A stretch of DNA of 64,000 nt from Escherichia coli (GCF_044647545.1 NZ_CP172818.1), one strand, 5' to 3'. Shown: positions 2,110 through 19,170, numbered from the stretch's first letter. Translations and numbers: made by a program. The notes: generated from the letters alone by a model not told the origin.

Positions 2110-3510
2110 ATGGGGCAATCATCGCAACCACATGAGTTAGGCGGCGGGCTGAAGTCACGCCACGTCACCATGTTGTCTATTGCCGGTGTTATCGGCGCAA
2201 GTCTGTTTGTCGGTTCCAGCGTCGCCATCGCCGAAGCGGGCCCGGCGGTATTACTGGCCTATCTGTTCGCCGGATTACTGGTGGTTATGATTATGCGGAT
2301 GTTGGCGGAAATGGCGGTTGCCACGCCCGATACCGGTTCGTTTTCCACCTATGCCGATAAAGCCATTGGCCGTTGGGCGGGCTATACCATCGGCTGGTTG
2401 TACTGGTGGTTTTGGGTACTGGTTATCCCACTGGAAGCCAACATCGCCGCCATGATCCTGCACTCGTGGGTTCCAGGCATTCCCATCTGGTTATTTTCCC
2501 TGGTCATTACCCTCGCCTTGACTGGCAGTAATTTATTAAGCGTTAAAAACTACGGCGAATTTGAGTTCTGGCTGGCGCTGTGCAAAGTCATCGCTATCCT
2601 GGCCTTTATTTTCCTTGGTGCAGTCGCAATTAGCGGTTTTTACCCTTATGCCGAAGTGAGCGGGATCTCAAGATTGTGGGATAGCGGCGGCTTTATGCCC
2701 AACGGCTTCGGTGCGGTATTAAGCGCGATGTTGATCACCATGTTCTCGTTTATGGGCGCAGAAATTGTCACTATTGCCGCCGCGGAATCTGACACGCCGG
2801 AAAAACATATTGTCCGCGCCACCAACTCGGTTATCTGGCGTATTTCTATCTTCTATTTGTGCTCTATTTTTGTCGTCGTGGCATTAATACCGTGGAATAT
2901 GCCGGGGCTGAAAGCCGTTGGATCTTATCGCTCGGTTCTGGAGTTGCTCAATATTCCCCATGCGAAATTAATCATGGACTGCGTGATATTACTTTCCGTA
3001 ACCAGTTGCCTGAACTCGGCGCTGTATACCGCTTCCAGAATGCTCTACTCCTTAAGCCGTCGCGGTGATGCGCCCGCGGTAATGGGTAAAATCAACCGCA
3101 GTAAAACCCCGTATGTGGCGGTATTACTCTCCACCGGCGCGGCATTTTTAACGGTGGTGGTGAATTATTACGCGCCTGCGAAAGTGTTTAAATTTCTGAT
3201 CGACAGCTCCGGTGCTATCGCCCTGCTGGTTTATTTAGTCATCGCCGTTTCACAATTGCGGATGCGCAAAATTCTGCGAGCAGAAGGAAGCGAAATTCGC
3301 CTGCGGATGTGGCTTTATCCGTGGCTCACCTGGCTGGTCATCGGCTTTATTACCTTTGTGTTGGTAGTGATGCTATTCCGCCCGGCGCAACAGTTAGAAG
3401 TGATCTCCACCGGCTTATTAGCGATAGGGATTATCTGTACCGTGCCAATTATGGCTCGCTGGAAAAAGCTGATAATGTGGCAAAAAACACCCATTCATAA
3501 TACGCGCTGA
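2110..3510 (+). CDS. gabP: GABA permease (APC family)
   Basis: ORF track frame 2047..3510; start placed at ATG 2110 (protein MGQSSQPHELGG..., GAGG-like RBS just upstream); 466 aa. Confidence 0.93.
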   Translation: MGQSSQPHELGGGLKSRHVTMLSIAGVIGASLFVGSSVAIAEAGPAVLLAYLFAGLLVVMIMRMLAEMAVATPDTGSFSTYADKAIGRWAGYTIGWLYWWFWVLVIPLEANIAAMILHSWVPGIPIWLFSLVITLALTGSNLLSVKNYGEFEFWLALCKVIAILAFIFLGAVAISGFYPYAEVSGISRLWDSGGFMPNGFGAVLSAMLITMFSFMGAEIVTIAAAESDTPEKHIVRATNSVIWRISIFYLCSIFVVVALIPWNMPGLKAVGSYRSVLELLNIPHAKLIMDCVILLSVTSCLNSALYTASRMLYSLSRRGDAPAVMGKINRSKTPYVAVLLSTGAAFLTVVVNYYAPAKVFKFLIDSSGAIALLVYLVIAVSQLRMRKILRAEGSEIRLRMWLYPWLTWLVIGFITFVLVVMLFRPAQQLEVISTGLLAIGIICTVPIMARWKKLIMWQKTPIHNTR

Positions 3511-3530
3511 TAATGATCAGGAGTCACACC

Positions 3531-4193
3531 ATGACCATTACCTCTCTGGATGGCTATCGCTGGCTGAAGAACGATATTATTCGCGGTAATTTTCAACCGG
3601 ATGAAAAATTACGGATGAGTTTGCTGACATCGCGTTATGCACTTGGCGTTGGGCCGTTACGGGAAGCTCTTTCGCAACTGGTGGCGGAACGGCTGGTCAC
3701 GGTGGTGAATCAAAAAGGGTATCGGGTGGCGTCTATGTCAGAGCAGGAGCTGCTCGATATTTTCGACGCCCGCGCCAATATGGAAGCGATGCTGGTGAGT
3801 CTGGCGATTGCCCGCGGTGGCGATGAATGGGAGGCAGACGTTCTCGCAAAAGCGCATCTGCTCAGTAAGCTTGAGGCCTGTGACGCCAGTGAGAAAATGC
3901 TTGATGAGTGGGATCTGCGTCATCAGGCGTTTCATACTGCAATTGTGGCGGGCTGTGGTTCTTACTATTTGCTGCAAATGCGTGAACGGTTGTTTGATCT
4001 GGCAGCGCGTTATCGCTTTATCTGGCTGCGGCGAACAGTGCTTTCGGTGGAAATGCTGGAAGATAAACACGATCAGCACCAGACCCTGACTGCGGCGGTA
4101 CTGGCGCGAGATACCGCGCGCGCCAGTGAGTTAATGCGCCAGCATTTACTGACGCCAATTCCCATTATCCAGCAGGCGATGGCTGGCAATTAA
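3531..4193 (+). CDS. csiR: GntR-family transcriptional repressor CsiR
   Basis: ORF track frame 3513..4193; start placed at ATG 3531 with AGGAG RBS at 3519-3523; 220 aa. Confidence 0.9.
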   Translation: MTITSLDGYRWLKNDIIRGNFQPDEKLRMSLLTSRYALGVGPLREALSQLVAERLVTVVNQKGYRVASMSEQELLDIFDARANMEAMLVSLAIARGGDEWEADVLAKAHLLSKLEACDASEKMLDEWDLRHQAFHTAIVAGCGSYYLLQMRERLFDLAARYRFIWLRRTVLSVEMLEDKHDQHQTLTAAVLARDTARASELMRQHLLTPIPIIQQAMAGN

Positions 4194-8362: not shown

Positions 8363-8390
8363 CCCCGAAGCCTGGCTTCGGGGTTTCTTC
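8363..8390 (+). terminator. rho-independent terminator after ygaM
   Basis: ccccgaagcc-tg-gcttcgggg hairpin followed by TTTCTTC. Confidence 0.65.
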
Positions 8391-8584
8391 ATTATGCCCG
8401 GCAAAAAAACACAAAAATCCCCTACCCCGTTGAGCCATTCATCGGTGGCGTAATCAATCTAAAATTCCCATATCTTGTGTGGTTGAATCTTTTTTCAACT
8501 ACATCTAGTATCTCTGTATCAACAGAGAGACAACCCGACGCGTATCATCGCGCCGTATCTTCATTTTAAACGGAAATACGAATC

Positions 8585-8830
8585 ATGCGCATTACTATTT
8601 ACACTCGTAACGATTGCGTTCAGTGCCACGCCACCAAACGGGCGATGGAAAACCGGGGCTTTGATTTTGAAATGATTAATGTCGATCGCGTTCCTGAAGC
8701 GGCAGAAGCGCTGCGTGCTCAGGGCTTTCGTCAGTTGCCGGTTGTGATTGCAGGCGATCTTAGCTGGTCTGGTTTCCGCCCGGACATGATCAATCGTCTG
8801 CATCCAGCGCCACACGCGGCCAGTGCATGA
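8585..8830 (+). CDS. nrdH: glutaredoxin-like protein NrdH
   Basis: ORF track 8585..8830, 81 aa; CVQC redox motif; first gene of nrdHIEF. Confidence 0.96.
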
Positions 8831-9237
8831 GCCAGCTCGTCTACTTTTCCAGCAGCTCCGAAAATACGCAGCGTTTTATCGAACGTTTAGGGCTGCCCGC
8901 GGTGCGCATCCCGCTCAATGAGCGGGAACGGATTCAGGTAGACGAGCCTTACATCCTGATCGTGCCCTCTTACGGCGGCGGCGGTACGACTGGCGCGGTG
9001 CCACGACAGGTCATTCGCTTTTTAAACGACGAGCATAACCGGGCGTTGCTGCGCGGCGTTATTGCTTCGGGTAATCGCAACTTTGGTGAGGCATATGGCC
9101 GCGCCGGAGATGTGATTGCCCGGAAATGCGGCGTGCCGTGGCTGTACCGCTTTGAACTCATGGGTACGCAAAGCGATATCGAAAACGTTCGTAAAGGAGT
9201 AACCGAATTTTGGCAACGACAACCGCAGAACGCCTGA
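8827..9237 (+). CDS. nrdI: flavodoxin-like ribonucleotide reductase stimulatory protein NrdI
   Basis: ORF track 8827..9237, 136 aa; 4-bp overlap with nrdH. Confidence 0.96.
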
Positions 9238-11354
9238 CGCAGGAAACGATGGATTATCACGCTCTGAATGCGATGCTTAACCTTTACGATAGCGCAGGTC
9301 GCATTCAGTTCGATAAAGATCTCCAGGCAGTAGACGCCTTTATGACGACGCATGTGCGTCCGAACAGTGTGGCCTTCAGTAGCCAGCAGCAGCGCCTGAA
9401 CTGGCTGGTTAACGAAGGTTACTATGATGAAAGTGTCCTTAATCGCTACTCTCGCGATTTTGTCATTACGCTGTTTGCCCACGCGCACGCCAGCGGTTTT
9501 CGTTTCCAGACATTCCTCGGAGCATGGAAGTTTTACACCAGCTATACGTTGAAGACATTCGACGGTAAGCGTTATCTGGAAGATTTTGCCGATCGCGTCA
9601 CGATGGTGGCGCTGACGCTGGCACAAGGCGATGAAACACTGGCGACGCAGCTCACTGATGAGATGCTGTCAGGACGCTTTCAGCCAGCCACGCCAACATT
9701 CCTCAACTGCGGTAAGCAGCAGCGCGGCGAACTGGTTTCCTGTTTTCTGCTGCGTATTGAAGACAATATGGAGTCGATTGGCCGGGCAGTAAATTCCGCA
9801 CTACAACTGTCGAAACGCGGCGGCGGCGTAGCATTTTTGCTGTCGAATCTGCGGGAAGCGGGCGCGCCAATTAAACGTATTGAAAATCAATCTTCTGGCG
9901 TGATTCCGGTGATGAAAATGCTGGAAGACGCATTTTCCTATGCTAACCAACTCGGCGCGCGTCAGGGGGCTGGGGCAGTCTATTTACATGCTCATCATCC
10001 CGATATTCTGCGTTTTCTCGATACAAAACGGGAAAATGCCGACGAAAAAATCCGCATTAAAACACTGTCGCTGGGCGTGGTGATCCCGGATATCACTTTC
10101 CATCTGGCAAAAGAGAATGCGCAGATGGCGCTGTTTTCGCCTTATGACGTAGAGCGAGTTTATGGCAAACCGTTTGCCGATGTCGCCATCAGCGAACGCT
10201 ATGACGAACTGGTTGCCGATGAACGCATTCGCAAAAAATACCTCAACGCCCGTGATTTCTTCCAGCGACTGGCAGAGATCCAGTTTGAGTCTGGCTATCC
10301 GTACATCATGTATGAAGACACGGTTAACCGTGCTAACCCTATCGCCGGGCGCATAAATATGAGCAATCTCTGCTCAGAAATTTTGCAGGTTAACAGCGCC
10401 TCAGAATATGACGAGAATCTCGACTATGCTCGTACAGGCCATGATATTTCCTGCAATCTAGGGTCGTTGAATATTGCCCACACAATGGATTCCCCCGACT
10501 TTGCCCGCACGGTAGAGACTGCCGTACGCGGTTTAACGGCGGTGTCAGATATGAGTCATATCCGCAGCGTGCCGTCCATCGAAGCCGGAAATGCCGCCTC
10601 ACACGCCATCGGTCTGGGGCAGATGAATTTACACGGTTATCTGGCGCGAGAAGGCATCGCTTATGGTTCGCCGGAAGCACTGGATTTCACCAATCTCTAT
10701 TTCTATACCATCACCTGGCACGCACTGCGTACCTCGATGTTGCTGGCGCGCGAACGCGGTGAAACCTTCGCCGGGTTCAAACAGTCACGCTATGCCAGTG
10801 GTGAATATTTCAGCCAATATCTGCAAAGTAACTGGCAGCCGAAAACGGCGAAAGTTGGCGAACTGTTTGCCCGTAGTGGTATTACGTTACCTACCCGTGA
10901 GATGTGGGCGCAGCTGCGCGACGACGTGATGCGCTATGGCATATACAACCAGAATCTCCAGGCGGTGCCGCCAACCGGTTCTATCTCTTATATCAACCAT
11001 GCCACGTCGAGTATTCATCCGATTGTGGCGAAAGTAGAGATACGCAAAGAGGGCAAAACAGGACGCGTTTACTACCCTGCCCCGTTTATGACTAACGAAA
11101 ATCTGGCGCTGTATCAGGACGCTTACGAAATCGGCGCAGAAAAGATCATCGACACCTACGCGGAAGCGACTCGCCATGTCGATCAGGGGCTGTCGCTGAC
11201 GCTGTTTTTCCCCGATACCGCCACCACTCGCGATATCAACAAAGCGCAGATTTACGCCTGGCGCAAAGGTATCAAAACGCTCTATTACATCCGCCTGCGT
11301 CAGATGGCGCTGGAAGGCACTGAAATTGAAGGCTGCGTCTCCTGTGCACTTTAA
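9210..11354 (+). CDS. nrdE: class Ib ribonucleotide reductase alpha subunit
   Basis: ORF track 9210..11354, 714 aa; recognised NrdE. Confidence 0.96.
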
Positions 11355-12678: not shown

Positions 12679-13881
12679 ATGGCAATTAAATTAGAAATTA
12701 AAAATCTTTATAAAATATTTGGTGAGCATCCACAGCGAGCTTTCAAATATATCGAACAAGGACTTTCAAAAGAACAAATTCTGGAAAAAACTGGGCTATC
12801 GCTTGGCGTAAAAGACGCCAGTCTGGCCATTGAAGAAGGCGAGATATTTGTCATCATGGGATTATCCGGTTCGGGTAAATCCACAATGGTACGCCTTCTC
12901 AATCGCCTGATTGAACCCACCCGCGGGCAAGTGCTGATTGATGGTGTGGATATTGCCAAAATATCCGACGCCGAACTCCGTGAGGTGCGCAGAAAAAAGA
13001 TTGCGATGGTCTTCCAGTCCTTTGCCTTAATGCCGCATATGACCGTGCTGGACAATACTGCGTTCGGTATGGAATTGGCCGGAATTAATGCCGAAGAACG
13101 CCGGGAAAAAGCCCTTGATGCACTGCGTCAGGTCGGGCTAGAAAATTATGCCCACAGCTACCCGGATGAACTCTCTGGCGGGATGCGTCAACGTGTGGGA
13201 TTAGCCCGCGCGTTAGCGATTAATCCGGATATATTATTAATGGACGAAGCCTTCTCGGCGCTCGATCCATTAATTCGCACTGAGATGCAGGATGAGCTGG
13301 TAAAATTACAGGCGAAACATCAGCGCACCATTGTCTTTATTTCTCACGATCTCGACGAAGCTATGCGTATTGGTGACCGAATTGCCATTATGCAAAATGG
13401 TGAAGTGGTGCAGGTTGGTACACCGGATGAAATTCTTAATAATCCGGCGAATGATTATGTCCGTACCTTCTTCCGTGGCGTCGATATTAGTCAGGTATTC
13501 AGTGCGAAAGATATTGCTCGCCGGACACCGAACGGCTTAATTCGTAAAACCCCCGGCTTCGGCCCGCGTTCGGCACTGAAATTATTGCAGGATGAAGATC
13601 GCGAATATGGCTACGTCATCGAACGTGGTAATAAGTTTGTCGGCGCAGTGTCTATCGATTCGCTTAAAACCGCGTTAACGCAGCAGCAAGGTCTTGATGC
13701 GGCGCTGATTGATGCGCCGTTAGCGGTCGATGCACAAACGCCTCTTAGCGAGTTGCTCTCTCATGTCGGACAGGCACCCTGTGCGGTGCCCGTGGTCGAC
13801 GAGGACCAACAGTATGTCGGCATCATTTCGAAAGGAATGCTGCTGCGCGCTTTAGATCGTGAGGGGGTAAATAATGGCTGA
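12679..13881 (+). CDS. proV: glycine betaine/proline ABC transporter ATPase
   Basis: ORF track 12679..13881, 400 aa; Walker [10 protein letters not shown]; C-terminal CBS domains. Confidence 0.96.
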
Positions 13882-14938
13882 TCAAAATAATCCGTGGGAT
13901 ACCACGCCAGCGGCGGACAGTGCTGCACAATCCGCAGACGCCTGGGGTACACCGGCTGCTGCACCGACTGACGGCGGTGGTGCTGACTGGCTGACCAGTA
14001 CGCCTGCGCCAAACGTCGAGCATTTTAATATTCTCGATCCGTTCCATAAAACTCTGATCCCGCTCGACAGTTGGGTCACTGAAGGGATCGACTGGGTCGT
14101 TACCCATTTCCGTCCCGTCTTCCAGGGCGTGCGCGTTCCGGTTGATTATATCCTCAACGGTTTCCAGCAATTGCTGCTGGGTATGCCCGCGCCGGTGGCG
14201 ATTATCGTTTTCGCTCTCATCGCCTGGCAGATTTCCGGGGTCGGAATGGGCGTGGCGACGCTGGTTTCGCTGATTGCCATCGGCGCAATCGGTGCCTGGT
14301 CGCAGGCCATGGTTACCCTGGCGCTGGTGTTAACCGCCCTGCTGTTCTGTATCGTCATAGGTTTGCCGTTGGGGATCTGGCTGGCGAGAAGTCCGCGAGC
14401 GGCGAAAATTATTCGTCCACTGCTTGATGCCATGCAGACCACGCCCGCGTTTGTTTATCTGGTGCCAATCGTCATGCTGTTTGGTATCGGCAACGTGCCG
14501 GGCGTGGTGGTGACGATCATCTTTGCGCTGCCGCCGATTATCCGTCTGACGATTCTGGGAATTAACCAGGTTCCGGCGGATCTGATTGAAGCCTCGCGCT
14601 CATTCGGTGCCAGCCCGCGCCAGATGCTGTTCAAAGTTCAGTTACCGCTGGCGATGCCAACCATTATGGCGGGCGTTAACCAGACGCTGATGCTGGCCCT
14701 TTCTATGGTGGTCATCGCCTCGATGATTGCCGTCGGCGGGCTGGGTCAGATGGTACTTCGCGGTATCGGTCGTCTGGATATGGGGCTTGCCACCGTTGGC
14801 GGCGTCGGGATTGTGATCCTCGCCATTATCCTCGACCGCCTGACGCAGGCCGTTGGGCGCGACTCACGCAGTCGCGGCAACCGTAGATGGTACACCACTG
14901 GCCCTGTTGGTCTGCTGACCCGCCCATTCATTAAGTAA
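13874..14938 (+). CDS. proW: glycine betaine/proline ABC transporter permease
   Basis: ORF track 13874..14938, 354 aa; overlaps proV by 8 bp. Confidence 0.96.
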
Positions 14939-14994: not shown

Positions 14995-15987
14995 ATGCGA
15001 CATAGCGTACTTTTTGCGACAGCGTTTGCCACGCTTATCTCTACACAAACTTTTGCTGCCGACCTGCCGGGCAAAGGCATTACTGTTAATCCGGTTCAGA
15101 GCACCATCACCGAAGAAACTTTCCAGACGCTGCTGGTCAGCCGCGCGCTGGAGAAATTAGGTTATACCGTCAATAAACCCAGCGAAGTGGATTACAACGT
15201 TGGCTACACCTCGCTTGCTTCCGGCGATGCAACCTTCACCGCAGTGAACTGGACGCCACTGCATGACAACATGTACGAAGCTGCCGGTGGCGATAAGAAA
15301 TTTTATCGTGAAGGAGTATTTGTTAACGGCGCGGCACAGGGTTACCTGATCGATAAGAAAACCGCCGACCAGTATAAAATTACCAACATCGCGCAACTTA
15401 AAGATCCGAAGATCGCCAAACTGTTCGATACCAACGGCGACGGTAAAGCGGATTTAACCGGCTGTAACCCAGGCTGGGGCTGCGAAGGTGCGATCAACCA
15501 CCAGCTTGCCGCGTATGGACTGACCAATACCGTGACGCATAATCAGGGGAACTACGCAGCGATGATGGCTGACACCATCAGTCGTTACAAAGAGGGTAAG
15601 CCGGTGTTTTACTACACCTGGACGCCGTACTGGGTGAGTAACGAACTGAAACCGGGGAAAGATGTGGTCTGGTTGCAGGTGCCGTTCTCCGCACTGCCGG
15701 GCGATAAAAATGCCGATACCAAACTGCCGAATGGCGCGAATTACGGCTTCCCGGTCAGTACCATGCATATCGTTGCCAACAAAGCCTGGGCCGAGAAAAA
15801 CCCGGCAGCAGCGAAACTGTTTGCCATTATGCAGTTACCAGTGGCAGATATTAACGCCCAGAACGCCATTATGCATGACGGCAAAGCCTCAGAAGGCGAT
15901 ATTCAGGGCCACGTTGATGGCTGGATCAAAGCCCACCAGCAGCAGTTCGATGGCTGGGTGAATGAGGCGCTGGCAGCGCAGAAGTAA
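14995..15987 (+). CDS. proX: glycine betaine/proline periplasmic binding protein
   Basis: ORF track frame 14947..15987; start placed at ATG 14995 ([14 protein letters not shown]... signal peptide) with AAGGA RBS. Confidence 0.94.
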
Positions 15988-15994
15988 TTTTTAT

Positions 15995-16076
15995 TCGGGC
16001 GGATAAGGCGTTTTTGCCTCATCCGCCGCTCTGTACACAATGCCTGATGCGACGCTGGTGCGTCTTATCATACCTA
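15995..16076. repeat. REP elements (two units) downstream of proX
   Basis: ttcgggcggataaggcg...catccgccg and gcctgatgcgacgctggtgcgtcttatca palindromes. Confidence 0.6.
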
Positions 16077-16178
16077 CAAACCACACCGCACATTTCAACA
16101 ATCTATCTTTCATCCCATATTCATCAACATCCGCTATTATTGATTTCCAGCTTAATCATCACCTGATGAACAAAAATA

Positions 16179-17363
16179 ATGACTAAACCTAATCATGAGC
16201 TTAGCCCGGCGCTGATCGTGCTGATGTCTATCGCCACCGGTCTGGCGGTAGCCAGTAACTATTACGCCCAGCCATTGCTCGACACCATCGCGCGTAACTT
16301 TTCCCTTTCCGCCAGTTCGGCAGGCTTTATTGTTACCGCCGCGCAGTTGGGCTATGCCGCAGGTCTGCTGTTTCTTGTTCCCCTCGGTGATATGTTTGAA
16401 CGCCGCCGCCTGATTGTCTCGATGACCTTACTGGCGGCAGGCGGCATGTTAATCACTGCCAGCAGTCAGTCGCTGGCGATGATGATCCTCGGTACGGCAT
16501 TAACCGGTTTATTCTCAGTCGTGGCACAAATTCTGGTTCCGCTGGCAGCGACGCTGGCTTCACCGGACAAACGCGGCAAAGTGGTCGGCACCATTATGAG
16601 CGGGCTGCTGTTGGGGATCTTGCTGGCACGGACCGTTGCCGGATTGCTGGCGAGTCTCGGTGGCTGGCGAACTGTCTTTTGGGTCGCTTCGGTATTAATG
16701 GCACTGATGGCGCTGGCGTTATGGCGTGGTCTGCCACAAATGAAATCAGAAACCCACCTCAACTACCCACAGTTGTTGGGTTCCGTTTTCAGCATGTTTA
16801 TCAGCAATAAGATCCTGCGCACCCGCGCGTTGCTGGGCTGCCTGACCTTTGCCAACTTCAGCATTCTCTGGACCTCAATGGCCTTTTTGCTTGCCGCTCC
16901 ACCTTTTAACTACAGCGATGGTGTAATTGGTCTGTTTGGGCTTGCGGGAGCTGCCGGAGCGTTGGGCGCTCGTCCGGCGGGCGGTTTTGCCGATAAGGGC
17001 AAATCACACCACACCACAACTTTCGGCCTGCTGCTGCTGTTACTTTCATGGCTGGCTATCTGGTTTGGACACACTTCTGTACTGGCGCTGGTTATCGGCA
17101 TCCTGGTGCTGGACCTCACCGTGCAGGGGGTGCACATCACTAACCAGACGGTAATTTATCGAATTTACCCCGATGCGCGTAATCGCCTGACTGCAGGTTA
17201 CATGACCAGCTACTTTATTGGCGGTGCTGCCGGTTCGCTAATTTCAGCCTCAGCCTGGCAACATGGCGGTTGGGCTGGCGTTTGTCTGGCTGGCGCGACG
17301 ATTGCCCTGGTTAACTTACTGGTCTGGTGGCGAGGTTTTCATCGTCAGGAAGCCGCAAATTAA
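16179..17363 (+). CDS. ygaY: MFS-family transporter, apparently intact 394-aa reading frame
   Basis: ORF track 16179..17363; about 12 predicted hydrophobic segments; position between proX and ygaZ. Confidence 0.85.
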   Translation: MTKPNHELSPALIVLMSIATGLAVASNYYAQPLLDTIARNFSLSASSAGFIVTAAQLGYAAGLLFLVPLGDMFERRRLIVSMTLLAAGGMLITASSQSLAMMILGTALTGLFSVVAQILVPLAATLASPDKRGKVVGTIMSGLLLGILLARTVAGLLASLGGWRTVFWVASVLMALMALALWRGLPQMKSETHLNYPQLLGSVFSMFISNKILRTRALLGCLTFANFSILWTSMAFLLAAPPFNYSDGVIGLFGLAGAAGALGARPAGGFADKGKSHHTTTFGLLLLLLSWLAIWFGHTSVLALVIGILVLDLTVQGVHITNQTVIYRIYPDARNRLTAGYMTSYFIGGAAGSLISASAWQHGGWAGVCLAGATIALVNLLVWWRGFHRQEAAN

Positions 17364-17486
17364 GCAATCAGCAACCGTTTTCGTGGCTTTACACTTATAA
17401 GGGTGTTAAGAAGCCCATCAGTCTGATAAGGTTAAGATATTCATTCAGTCTATTTATAATATTAACAATCGTTAAGCGTACACTCT

Positions 17487-18224
17487 ATGGAAAGCCCTAC
17501 TCCACAGCCTGCTCCTGGTTCGGCGACCTTCATGGAAGGATGCAAAGACAGTTTACCGATTGTTATTAGTTATATTCCGGTGGCCTTTGCGTTCGGTCTG
17601 AATGCGACCCGTCTGGGATTCTCTCCTCTCGAAAGCGTTTTTTTCTCCTGCATCATTTATGCAGGCGCGAGCCAGTTCGTCATTACCGCGATGCTGGCAG
17701 CCGGGAGTAGTTTGTGGGTTGCTGCACTGACCGTCATGGCAATGGATGTTCGCCATGTTTTGTATGGCCCGTCACTGCGTAGCCGTATTATTCAGCGTCT
17801 GCAAAAATCGAAAACCGCCCTGTGGGCATTTGGCCTGACGGATGAGGTTTTTGCCGCCGCAACCGCAAAACTGGTACGCAATAATCGCCGCTGGAGCGAG
17901 AACTGGATGATCGGCATTGCCTTCAGTTCATGGTCATCGTGGGTATTTGGTACGGTAATAGGGGCATTCTCCGGCAGCGGCTTGCTGCAAGGATATCCCG
18001 CCGTTGAAGCAGCATTAGGTTTTATGCTTCCGGCACTCTTTATGAGTTTCCTGCTCGCCTCTTTCCAGCGCAAACAATCTCTTTGCGTTACCGCAGCGTT
18101 AGTTGGTGCCCTTGCAGGCGTAACGCTATTTTCTATTCCCGTCGCCATTCTGGCAGGCATTGTCTGTGGCTGCCTCACTGCGTTAATCCAGGCATTCTGG
18201 CAAGGAGCGCCCGATGAGCTATGA
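17487..18224 (+). CDS. ygaZ: AzlC-family branched-chain amino acid (valine) exporter subunit
   Basis: ORF track 17487..18224, 245 aa. Confidence 0.9.
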
Positions 18225-18549
18225 GGTTTTGCTGCTTGGGTTACTGGTTGGCACGGCGAATTATTGCTTCCGCTATTTGCCGCTGCGCCTGCGTGTGGGT
18301 AATGCCCGCCCAACCAAACGTGGCGCGATAGGCATATTGCTCGACACCATTGGCATCGCCTCGATATGCGCTCTGCTGGTTGTCTCTACCGCACCAGAAG
18401 TGATGCACGATACACGCCGTTTCGTGCCCACACTGGTCGGCTTCGCGGTACTGGGTGCCAGTTTCTATAAAACACGCAGCATTATCATCCCAACACTGCT
18501 TAGTGCGCTGGCCTACGGGCTCGCCTGGAAAGTGATGGCGATTATATAA
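18214..18549 (+). CDS. ygaH: AzlD-family exporter small subunit
   Basis: ORF track 18214..18549, 111 aa; overlaps ygaZ by 11 bp. Confidence 0.9.
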
Positions 18550-18639: not shown

Positions 18640-19170
18640 ATGGATAGTTCGTTTACGCCCATTGAACAAATGCTAAAATTTCGCGCCAGCCGCCACGAAG
18701 ATTTTCCTTATCAGGAGATCCTTCTGACTCGTCTTTGCATGCACATGCAAAGCAAGCTGCTGGAGAACCGCAATAAAATGCTGAAGGCTCAGGGGATTAA
18801 CGAGACGTTGTTTATGGCGTTGATTACGCTGGAGTCTCAGGAAAACCACAGTATTCAGCCTTCTGAATTGAGTTGTGCTCTTGGATCATCCCGTACCAAC
18901 GCGACGCGTATTGCCGATGAACTGGAAAAACGCGGTTGGATCGAACGTCGTGAAAGCGATAACGATCGCCGCTGCCTGCATCTGCAATTAACGGAAAAAG
19001 GTCACGAGTTTTTGCGCGAGGTTTTACCACCGCAGCATAATTGCCTGCATCAACTCTGGTCCGCGCTCAGCACAACAGAAAAAGATCAGCTCGAGCAAAT
19101 CACCCGCAAATTGCTCTCCCGTCTCGACCAGATGGAACAAGACGGTGCGGTTCTCGAAGCGATGAGCTAA
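18640..19170 (+). CDS. mprA: MarR-family repressor of emrAB
   Basis: ORF track 18640..19170, 176 aa; recognised MprA/EmrR. Confidence 0.95.

Follow-up and report, generated by a model that had tools for sequence, protein, structure and literature searches.

Identity of the ygaY frame

The ygaY locus of Escherichia coli raises the question of whether the gene between proX and ygaZ is a decayed reading frame, as it appears in strain K-12, or a transporter gene that K-12 has lost. Both halves of this picture are already known, as ygaY is recorded as a pseudogene of K-12 in databases and papers and as an intact major facilitator superfamily (MFS) transporter elsewhere by PGAP. We analyzed a stretch of 64,000 nucleotides from E. 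coli (GCF_044647545.1 NZ_CP172818.1), referred to below as the window. A preliminary description of this stretch had read ygaY as a full-length, uninterrupted 394-aa MFS frame with about 12 hydrophobic segments and had taken the locus to be disrupted in MG1655, in which case the source strain would carry an allele free of the reference defect. An ORF listing returned an uninterrupted, ATG-initiated frame of 394 codons plus TAA at 16179..17363 on the plus strand, with a same-frame stop codon directly abutting the 5' side of the ATG. PGAP assigns the same coordinates to an intact 'MFS transporter', WP_022646012.1, in FDAARGOS_497, and its CDS is 100% identical to that of the window. The claimed full-length frame is thus borne out by the ORF, by PGAP and by the Pfam MFS_1 match described below. 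The gene order, proVWX-ygaY-ygaZH-emrRAB, is the canonical E. coli neighborhood, with the following genes in the window:

13874-14938: proW/proX; proX ends at 15987
16179..17363, plus strand: ygaY CDS, based on the ORF, Pfam, identity to WP_022646012.1, AlphaFold2 (AF2), Foldseek and the TCDB assignment
17487-18224: ygaZ
18214-18549: ygaH
18640-19170: mprA/emrR

Loss of one heptamer unit in K-12

The orthologous CDS of K-12 MG1655 (NZ_CP184745.1) is 1,178 nt long and is flagged in RefSeq as a pseudogene, 'frameshifted'. In a global alignment with the window, we counted 45 substitutions in 1,178 nt (96.2% nucleotide identity), and the sole indel was a 7-bp gap, which coincides with a short tandem repeat:

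16433..16446, plus strand: tandem heptamer GGCGGCA-GGCGGCA, codons 85-90 (..L-A-A-G-G-M..), inside transmembrane helix 3 (TM3), located by alignment with the K-12 CDS

The gap can be placed on either unit (16433-16439 or 16440-16446), as the window carries two heptamers between CTTACT and TGTTA where K-12 has a single copy. The K-12 reading frame consequently shifts at codon 86 and stops after codon 88 (...LLAAC*). Since this frame ends inside TM3, no functional 12-helix transporter is possible. The K-12 gene (b2680/b2681, UniProt P76628) therefore occupies the same proX-ygaZ locus as the gene in the window but lacks one heptamer unit, whereas the window gene has both units and stays open to codon 394, and is not the K-12-type pseudogene allele. 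The statement that MG1655 ygaY is disrupted was correct, and the proposed alignment reduced the disruption to a single 7-bp indel with an immediate stop. Of the two outcomes that the preliminary description had named as speaking against it, namely an MG1655 locus that is identical and annotated intact, or a misread frameshift or stop in the window, neither was found; the source strain is a non-K-12 strain with an intact allele. Rashid et al. described K-12 ygaY as cryptic, with nine in-frame stops (bioRxiv 10.1101/2023.07.10.548347 / PMC10656529), and the Keio ygaY deletion served Price et al. as a pseudogene control (bioRxiv 10.1101/072470).

Apart from the lost heptamer, the K-12 allele is well preserved. 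Once its frame was restored, the K-12 sequence downstream of the lesion differed from the window protein at only 4 residues, and the repaired allele gave a dN/dS of 0.03 against the window, matching intact alleles. In addition, the intact allele of the clinical isolate 167 differs from the K-12 pseudogene by 1 nucleotide and the heptamer, its tandem reading GCGGCAT-GCGGCAT. This near-identical allele and the dN/dS of the repaired one indicate that the K-12 lesion is recent and that the gene is otherwise healthy. Most simply, one 7-bp tandem unit would have been lost via replication slippage. The tandem is perfect in some E. coli lineages only (GGCGGCA twice in the window, GCGGCAT twice in strains 167 and A25), while in other lineages synonymous variants, GGCAGCGGGCGGTA and GGCAGCAGGCGGCA, interrupt the repeat, so that some lineages are more prone to slippage here than others.

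Alleles across E. coli genomes

To count K-12-type alleles, we used a 47-nt junction probe, built so that a 28-mer megablast seed arises from the deletion junction alone. Matches, each of them at 100% identity, came from 353 of the 5,426 complete E. coli genomes in the collection. The matches listed were all K-12 derivatives or laboratory strains, including MG1655, W3110-type strains, BW2952, DH1, MC4100, C600, TG1, XL1-Blue, HB101 and J53 derivatives, and O16:H48 mouse-colonization isolates were also among them. The corresponding probe for the intact junction matched 2,110 genomes, which is a lower bound because the 28-mer seed fails where synonymous SNPs lie nearby (variants GGCAGCGGGCGGTA and GGCGGCATGCGGCA); length and annotation sampling were used instead. 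An unflagged ygaY CDS of 1,185 nt was present in 13/13 annotated non-K-12 genomes taken at evenly spaced ranks. In a second sample, restricted to the CDS, 55 of 60 evenly spaced genomes had exactly 1,185 nt, and four had 1,178 nt (K-12 C3026, ATCC BAA-196, JB41 and HB101), all of them K-12 lineage or hybrids; the remaining genome, PCP06021, had a deletion in ygaY. Such sampling picks up net length changes and annotated pseudogenes, the 60-genome sample being blind to nonsense mutations. On these counts, the 7-bp deletion is private to the K-12 lineage and, as judged from the sequences compared, a derived state.

Some sequencing chemistries make errors at short tandem repeats, and the difference between K-12 and the window could in principle be artefactual, caused by faulty sequencing or assembly of either the MG1655 reference or the window. 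We consider the chance of this negligible, as the same deletion junction occurs in the 353 independently sequenced K-12-lineage genomes, the two-copy heptamer is present in thousands of others, and a 7-bp unit is unlike a homopolymer-type error. The junction matches and the length sample together rule out an artefact as the source of the K-12 lesion, which we treat below as a genuine deletion.

The locus itself was found in 5,418 of the 5,426 genomes, with at least 80% query coverage in 5,413. A foreign origin of ygaY was likewise ruled out, given this distribution, a GC content of 53-58% like that of the flanks, and synteny in all sampled strains. PCP06021 (NZ_CM129877.1, from Galapagos seawater) represents a second, independent loss of ygaY and the sole such case in both evenly spaced samples: at 3190-3652, a deletion fuses ygaY at codon ~53 with ygaH. 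Everything in between is gone, namely the 3' part of ygaY, the whole of ygaZ and the beginning of ygaH, and with it the valine exporter.

Full-length 394-aa orthologues were also found beyond E. coli, in E. fergusonii (97% identity), E. marmotae (97%), E. albertii (94-95%), Shigella and Citrobacter (92%). When we compared the window allele with twelve other distinct E. coli alleles, dN/dS was 0.02-0.07 at a dS of 0.09-0.19. That a frame of 1,185 nt stays open with such ratios goes well past chance expectation. A deletion private to K-12, full-length orthologues and these low ratios together lead us to regard intact ygaY as ancestral and under selection; it is nearly universal and, from the pattern of substitutions, under strong purifying selection. 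The intact gene is the norm of the species and its ancestral state, rather than a special 'functional allele', and K-12 is the exception. We are accordingly highly confident that 16179-17363 is an ancestral, intact core-gene allele encoding a 394-residue, 12-helix MFS transporter of the YnfM family, and that the K-12 lesion is private to its lineage.

Flanking spacers and expression

We next considered the sequences on either side of the gene, which hold the following features:

15988..16178, plus strand: proX-ygaY spacer, 191 nt, with a REP/BIME pair in its 5' part and an AT-rich 3' part (~42% GC)
15997-16074, plus strand: REP/BIME pair, Rfam naRNA4 (RF02564), 60 bits (gathering score 59.5)
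17364..17486, plus strand: ygaY-ygaZ spacer, 123 nt
17432-17460, plus strand: promoter-like TTAAGA-17-TATAAT, 10/12 in a consensus scan, a pattern match only

The proX-ygaY spacer contains a hairpin at 15998-16027, and neither a consensus sigma-70 promoter nor a clear Shine-Dalgarno match was detected when this spacer was scanned. Its length is polymorphic (+99 bp in SRY206 and +11 bp in 2017.17.01CC), some lineages give no alignment over its first ~96 nt, and in 2017.17.01CC PGAP places on the opposite strand a 60-aa 'hypothetical protein' that is probably spurious. Within the ygaY CDS, the promoter and terminator scan gave matches at chance level, and no intrinsic terminator was detected by the scan after the gene. 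The promoter-like element at 17432-17460 suggests that ygaZH may have a promoter of its own, so that ygaY would not be obligatorily co-transcribed with it.

In K-12, ygaY transcripts are detectable at a low level and go up on hyperosmotic shock, with a strong increase in an stpA mutant, and a bridge mediated by H-NS and other nucleoid-associated proteins (NAPs) has been reported to link the ygaY region to the downstream regulatory element (DRE) of proU (PMC10656529). This bridging and the lack of an upstream promoter or Shine-Dalgarno match in the scan mean that expression of intact ygaY may be low or conditional. Carried further, the same observations could mean that ygaY is effectively silent in the source strain too, a cryptic, H-NS-covered ORF that is open by chance or recent ancestry, as the upstream spacer is AT-rich and without a recognizable promoter or ribosome-binding site, and as the K-12 locus shows both the DRE-ygaY bridge and low transcript levels (PMC10656529). 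We find this improbable: a dN/dS of 0.02-0.07 at a dS of 0.09-0.19 and 92% identity to Citrobacter over 394 aa would be impossible without selection on the protein, and even in K-12 the transcripts are detectable and raised by hyperosmotic shock. The signal of purifying selection instead argues that intact ygaY is presumably expressed somewhere, even if at a low or conditional level.

Predicted fold and conserved residues

YgaY matched Pfam MFS_1 (PF07690) in two stretches with 143.4 bits (cut-off 33.4, E 1.1e-41). Of the hydrophobic segments found in a Kyte-Doolittle scan, the N-terminal half holds six, all strong, and the C-terminal half four strong and two weaker, glycine-rich ones. We then modeled the protein with AlphaFold2, using an alignment of 66 sequences whose relatives span 33-92% identity. 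The model is of high confidence (pLDDT 94.7, pTM 0.92) and consists of two six-helix bundles with 12 TM helices:

Residues 10-40, 45-71, 75-94, 99-126, 132-161 and 163-184: helices of the N-terminal half
Residues 196-209: linker helix
Residues 211-239, 247-272, 276-298, 301-329 and 331-393: helices of the C-terminal half, the last run comprising TM11 and TM12

The estimate of about 12 hydrophobic segments agrees with both the hydropathy scan and the model, and the topology prediction that had been proposed for the 394-aa product yields six helices, a linker helix and six further long helices. A Foldseek search with the model gave 455 matches in the PDB at E <= 1e-3; MFS transporters made up all 50 of those listed.

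Three sequence features stand out in this fold:

16386..16409, plus strand: motif A, G-D-M-F-E-R-R-R, codons 70-77, in the cytoplasmic TM2-TM3 loop, read from the translation
16629..16631, plus strand: R151, membrane-embedded in TM5 (AF2), 98% conserved, aligned with an arginine of YnfM (BLASTP)
17112..17114, plus strand: D312, membrane-embedded in TM10 (AF2), 89% conserved, adjoining the conserved Q316, N322 and Q323

Motif A of MFS proteins lies in the TM2-TM3 loop and reads G-x-x-x-D-R/K-x-G-R-R/K. YgaY has this motif with slightly non-canonical spacing (G70-D71-M-F-E-R75-R76-R77), and G70 and D71 are conserved at >=90% in the 66 relatives. The antiporter motif C, G-x8-G-x3-G-P-x2-G-G, lies in TM5. 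Set against it, TM5 of YgaY (G137-TIMS-G142-LLL-G146-ILL-A150-R151-TV-A154-G155) keeps the glycine spacing but has AR in place of GP and AG in place of GG. Among the 66 relatives, the conserved polar residues in the predicted helices are Y28, Q31, Q56, Y59, Q117, R151, D312, Q316, N322, Q323 and R336.

Relatives of YgaY

In the TCDB assignment given in a paper on Bacillus cereus efflux (PMC5417439), YgaY (P76628) is 2.A.1.36.3, a member of the Acriflavin-sensitivity (YnfM) family whose function is listed there as unknown, and no functional data for it were found in the papers searched that mention YgaY by name. In BLASTP, YgaY and E. coli YnfM (b1596), the founding member of TCDB 2.A.1.36, aligned collinearly and end to end with 26% identity over 409 columns (E 3e-19). 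Both have the 12-TM MFS layout, motif A and the TM5 arginine. They differ at the position of D312, which is a serine in YnfM, and in their surroundings, as ynfM has a divergent LysR regulator gene, ynfL, as its partner whereas ygaY has no adjacent regulator.

E. coli YnfM has been reported as a CCCP-sensitive glutarate exporter, and its C. glutamicum counterpart as a glutarate exporter (PMC12622518); YnfM was also recovered in a pentose-efflux screen (PMC3429515). CuiT, the Salmonella YnfM orthologue, has in contrast been claimed to be a copper importer (PMC13101709). Given this import claim against the export reports, the direction of transport is unreadable from membership in the YnfM family.

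A sequence search of the PDB with YgaY gave weak partial matches only (GlcP at 1.4e-07, SotB at ~1e-3), which is why structure prediction and Foldseek were used instead. The best fold matches were the DHA1 proton antiporters SotB (6KKK/6KKL), MdfA (4ZP0/6EUQ) and NorA (8TTF), with best TM scores of 0.83-0.85 over ~385 aligned columns (0.79-0.85 across the top matches to these three) at a sequence identity of only 15-18%, followed by VMAT, FLVCR and SPNS2. The three antiporters and the YgaY model have the same 12-TM topology and an inward-open-like conformation, but motif C is degenerate in YgaY, with AR..AG instead of GP..GG. The fold match of the predicted model is a resemblance and no proof of DHA1 membership. 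YgaY scored below the curated-model cut-offs for the DHA1 family (TCDB 2.A.1.2), and none of the NCBIfam models searched reached its cut-off. The best NCBIfam similarities, all partial, were to efflux families (SotB-type PRK03545, Cmx/CmrA, Bcr/CflA, MxcK and EmrD), with scores, in bits against the respective cut-off, of 62/401 for PRK03545, 50/303 for Bcr/CflA PRK11102, 48/201 for TIGR00710 and 36/479 for EmrD. As all these scores are far below the family cut-offs, YgaY is without a characterized equivalog.

HMMER retrieved 8,872 clusters of relatives (50% identity) at E <= 1e-3, of which 1,136 reached E <= 1e-30; named relatives came from Burkholderiales, Gilliamella, Bacillus, Rhodococcus and Salinisphaera. 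Their names, being all generic ('MFS transporter', 'predicted MFS family arabinose efflux permease'), were set aside. The gene neighborhood was dropped as a clue to the substrate, as no conserved neighbor was found among four distant homologues, from Corticimicrobacter, Bacillus altitudinis, Rhodococcus and Salinisphaera. The only hint from these neighborhoods is a divergent TetR regulator gene adjoining the Bacillus homologue.

Possible mechanism and direction of transport

YgaY would operate by the alternating-access cycle of MFS proteins, probably powered by the proton-motive force. In such a cycle, D312 in TM10 is a candidate site of protonation and proton coupling, and R151 in TM5 a candidate contact for an anionic substrate. 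The cargo would be a small, possibly anionic metabolite.

As to direction, we lean towards YgaY being an exporter rather than an importer, at even confidence. The leaning comes from comparison with other proteins: the closest relatives by sequence and by structure are all exporters, YnfM has been reported as a glutarate exporter (PMC12622518) and was found in the pentose-efflux screen (PMC3429515), and a neighboring TetR regulator, as beside the Bacillus homologue, is a usual feature of efflux pumps. That YgaY might instead work in uptake, as a proton symporter or as a carrier of metals or nutrients into the cell, is a reading we hold to be plausible though not favored. The MFS fold is compatible with both directions, CuiT has been claimed to import Cu in Salmonella (PMC13101709), motif C is incomplete in TM5 (G146-I-L-L-A-R-T-V-A-G155), and the symporters DgoT and GlpT appear lower in the Foldseek list. 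Against import, the top structural and sequence neighbors are all efflux proteins, YnfM of both E. coli and C. glutamicum has been reported to export (PMC12622518), and the divergent TetR repressor beside the Bacillus homologue is again what is typically seen with efflux pumps.

Consequences for work in K-12 and other strains

Relative to what was known of ygaY, the present analysis makes modest additions, namely that the lesion is the loss of one 7-bp tandem unit, that a near-identical, intact, progenitor-like allele exists, that the restriction of the lesion to K-12 can be quantified, and that the strength of purifying selection can be measured. With them, ygaY becomes a sensible choice for functional study outside K-12, as a further conserved transporter left uncharacterized through reliance on a model strain that is itself a natural knockout. 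In K-12, the gene also finds wide use as a pseudogene control or integration site presumed to be 'neutral'. This presumption fails to transfer to other E. coli, among them ATCC 25922 and O157:H7, where ygaY is intact and under selection. For the window itself, intact ygaY is a clean marker of an origin outside the K-12 lineage.

More speculatively, ygaY may encode a core transporter of Escherichia and Citrobacter whose role was overlooked since K-12 lost it, such that repair of the 7 bp in K-12 or deletion of the gene in a wild strain gives a defined phenotype; we regard this as rather unlikely. If true, the phenotype could for example be that a particular carboxylate or amino-acid-like metabolite is exported, perhaps in a way tied to the functions of the flanking proVWX (osmoprotectant uptake), ygaZH (valine export) and emrRAB, and the locus would mark a point of divergence between the physiology of K-12 and that of natural E. 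coli.

Relatedness of the source strain

The ygaY allele of the window is 95-97% identical at the nucleotide level to that of more than 5,200 genomes and at least 99% identical in 63 genomes only. From this scarcity of close alleles and the high dS, the lineage of the window is comparatively uncommon in the complete-genome collection. The ygaY region of the window is 100% identical to that of FDAARGOS_497. Over its first 25 kb, the window matches some dozen genomes of clinical and environmental origin at 100% identity, among them Ecol_881, WP4-S18-ESBL-09 and DSM 101139, and only 64 genomes at >=99%.

Between ygaM and nrdH, at 8387-8413, the window is without a 1.89-kb two-gene cassette that comprises a gene for a MocR/PdxR-like PLP-dependent regulator and a carboxymuconolactone-decarboxylase-family gene. 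Every genome with 100% identity to the remainder of 1-25000 carries this cassette (for example Ecol_881, where it lies at 8387-10278), and no exact copy of the empty-site ygaM-nrdH junction was recovered at >=80% coverage from the 5,426 complete E. coli genomes. The source strain is thus either absent from this set or has an empty site that arose by a private deletion or recombination.
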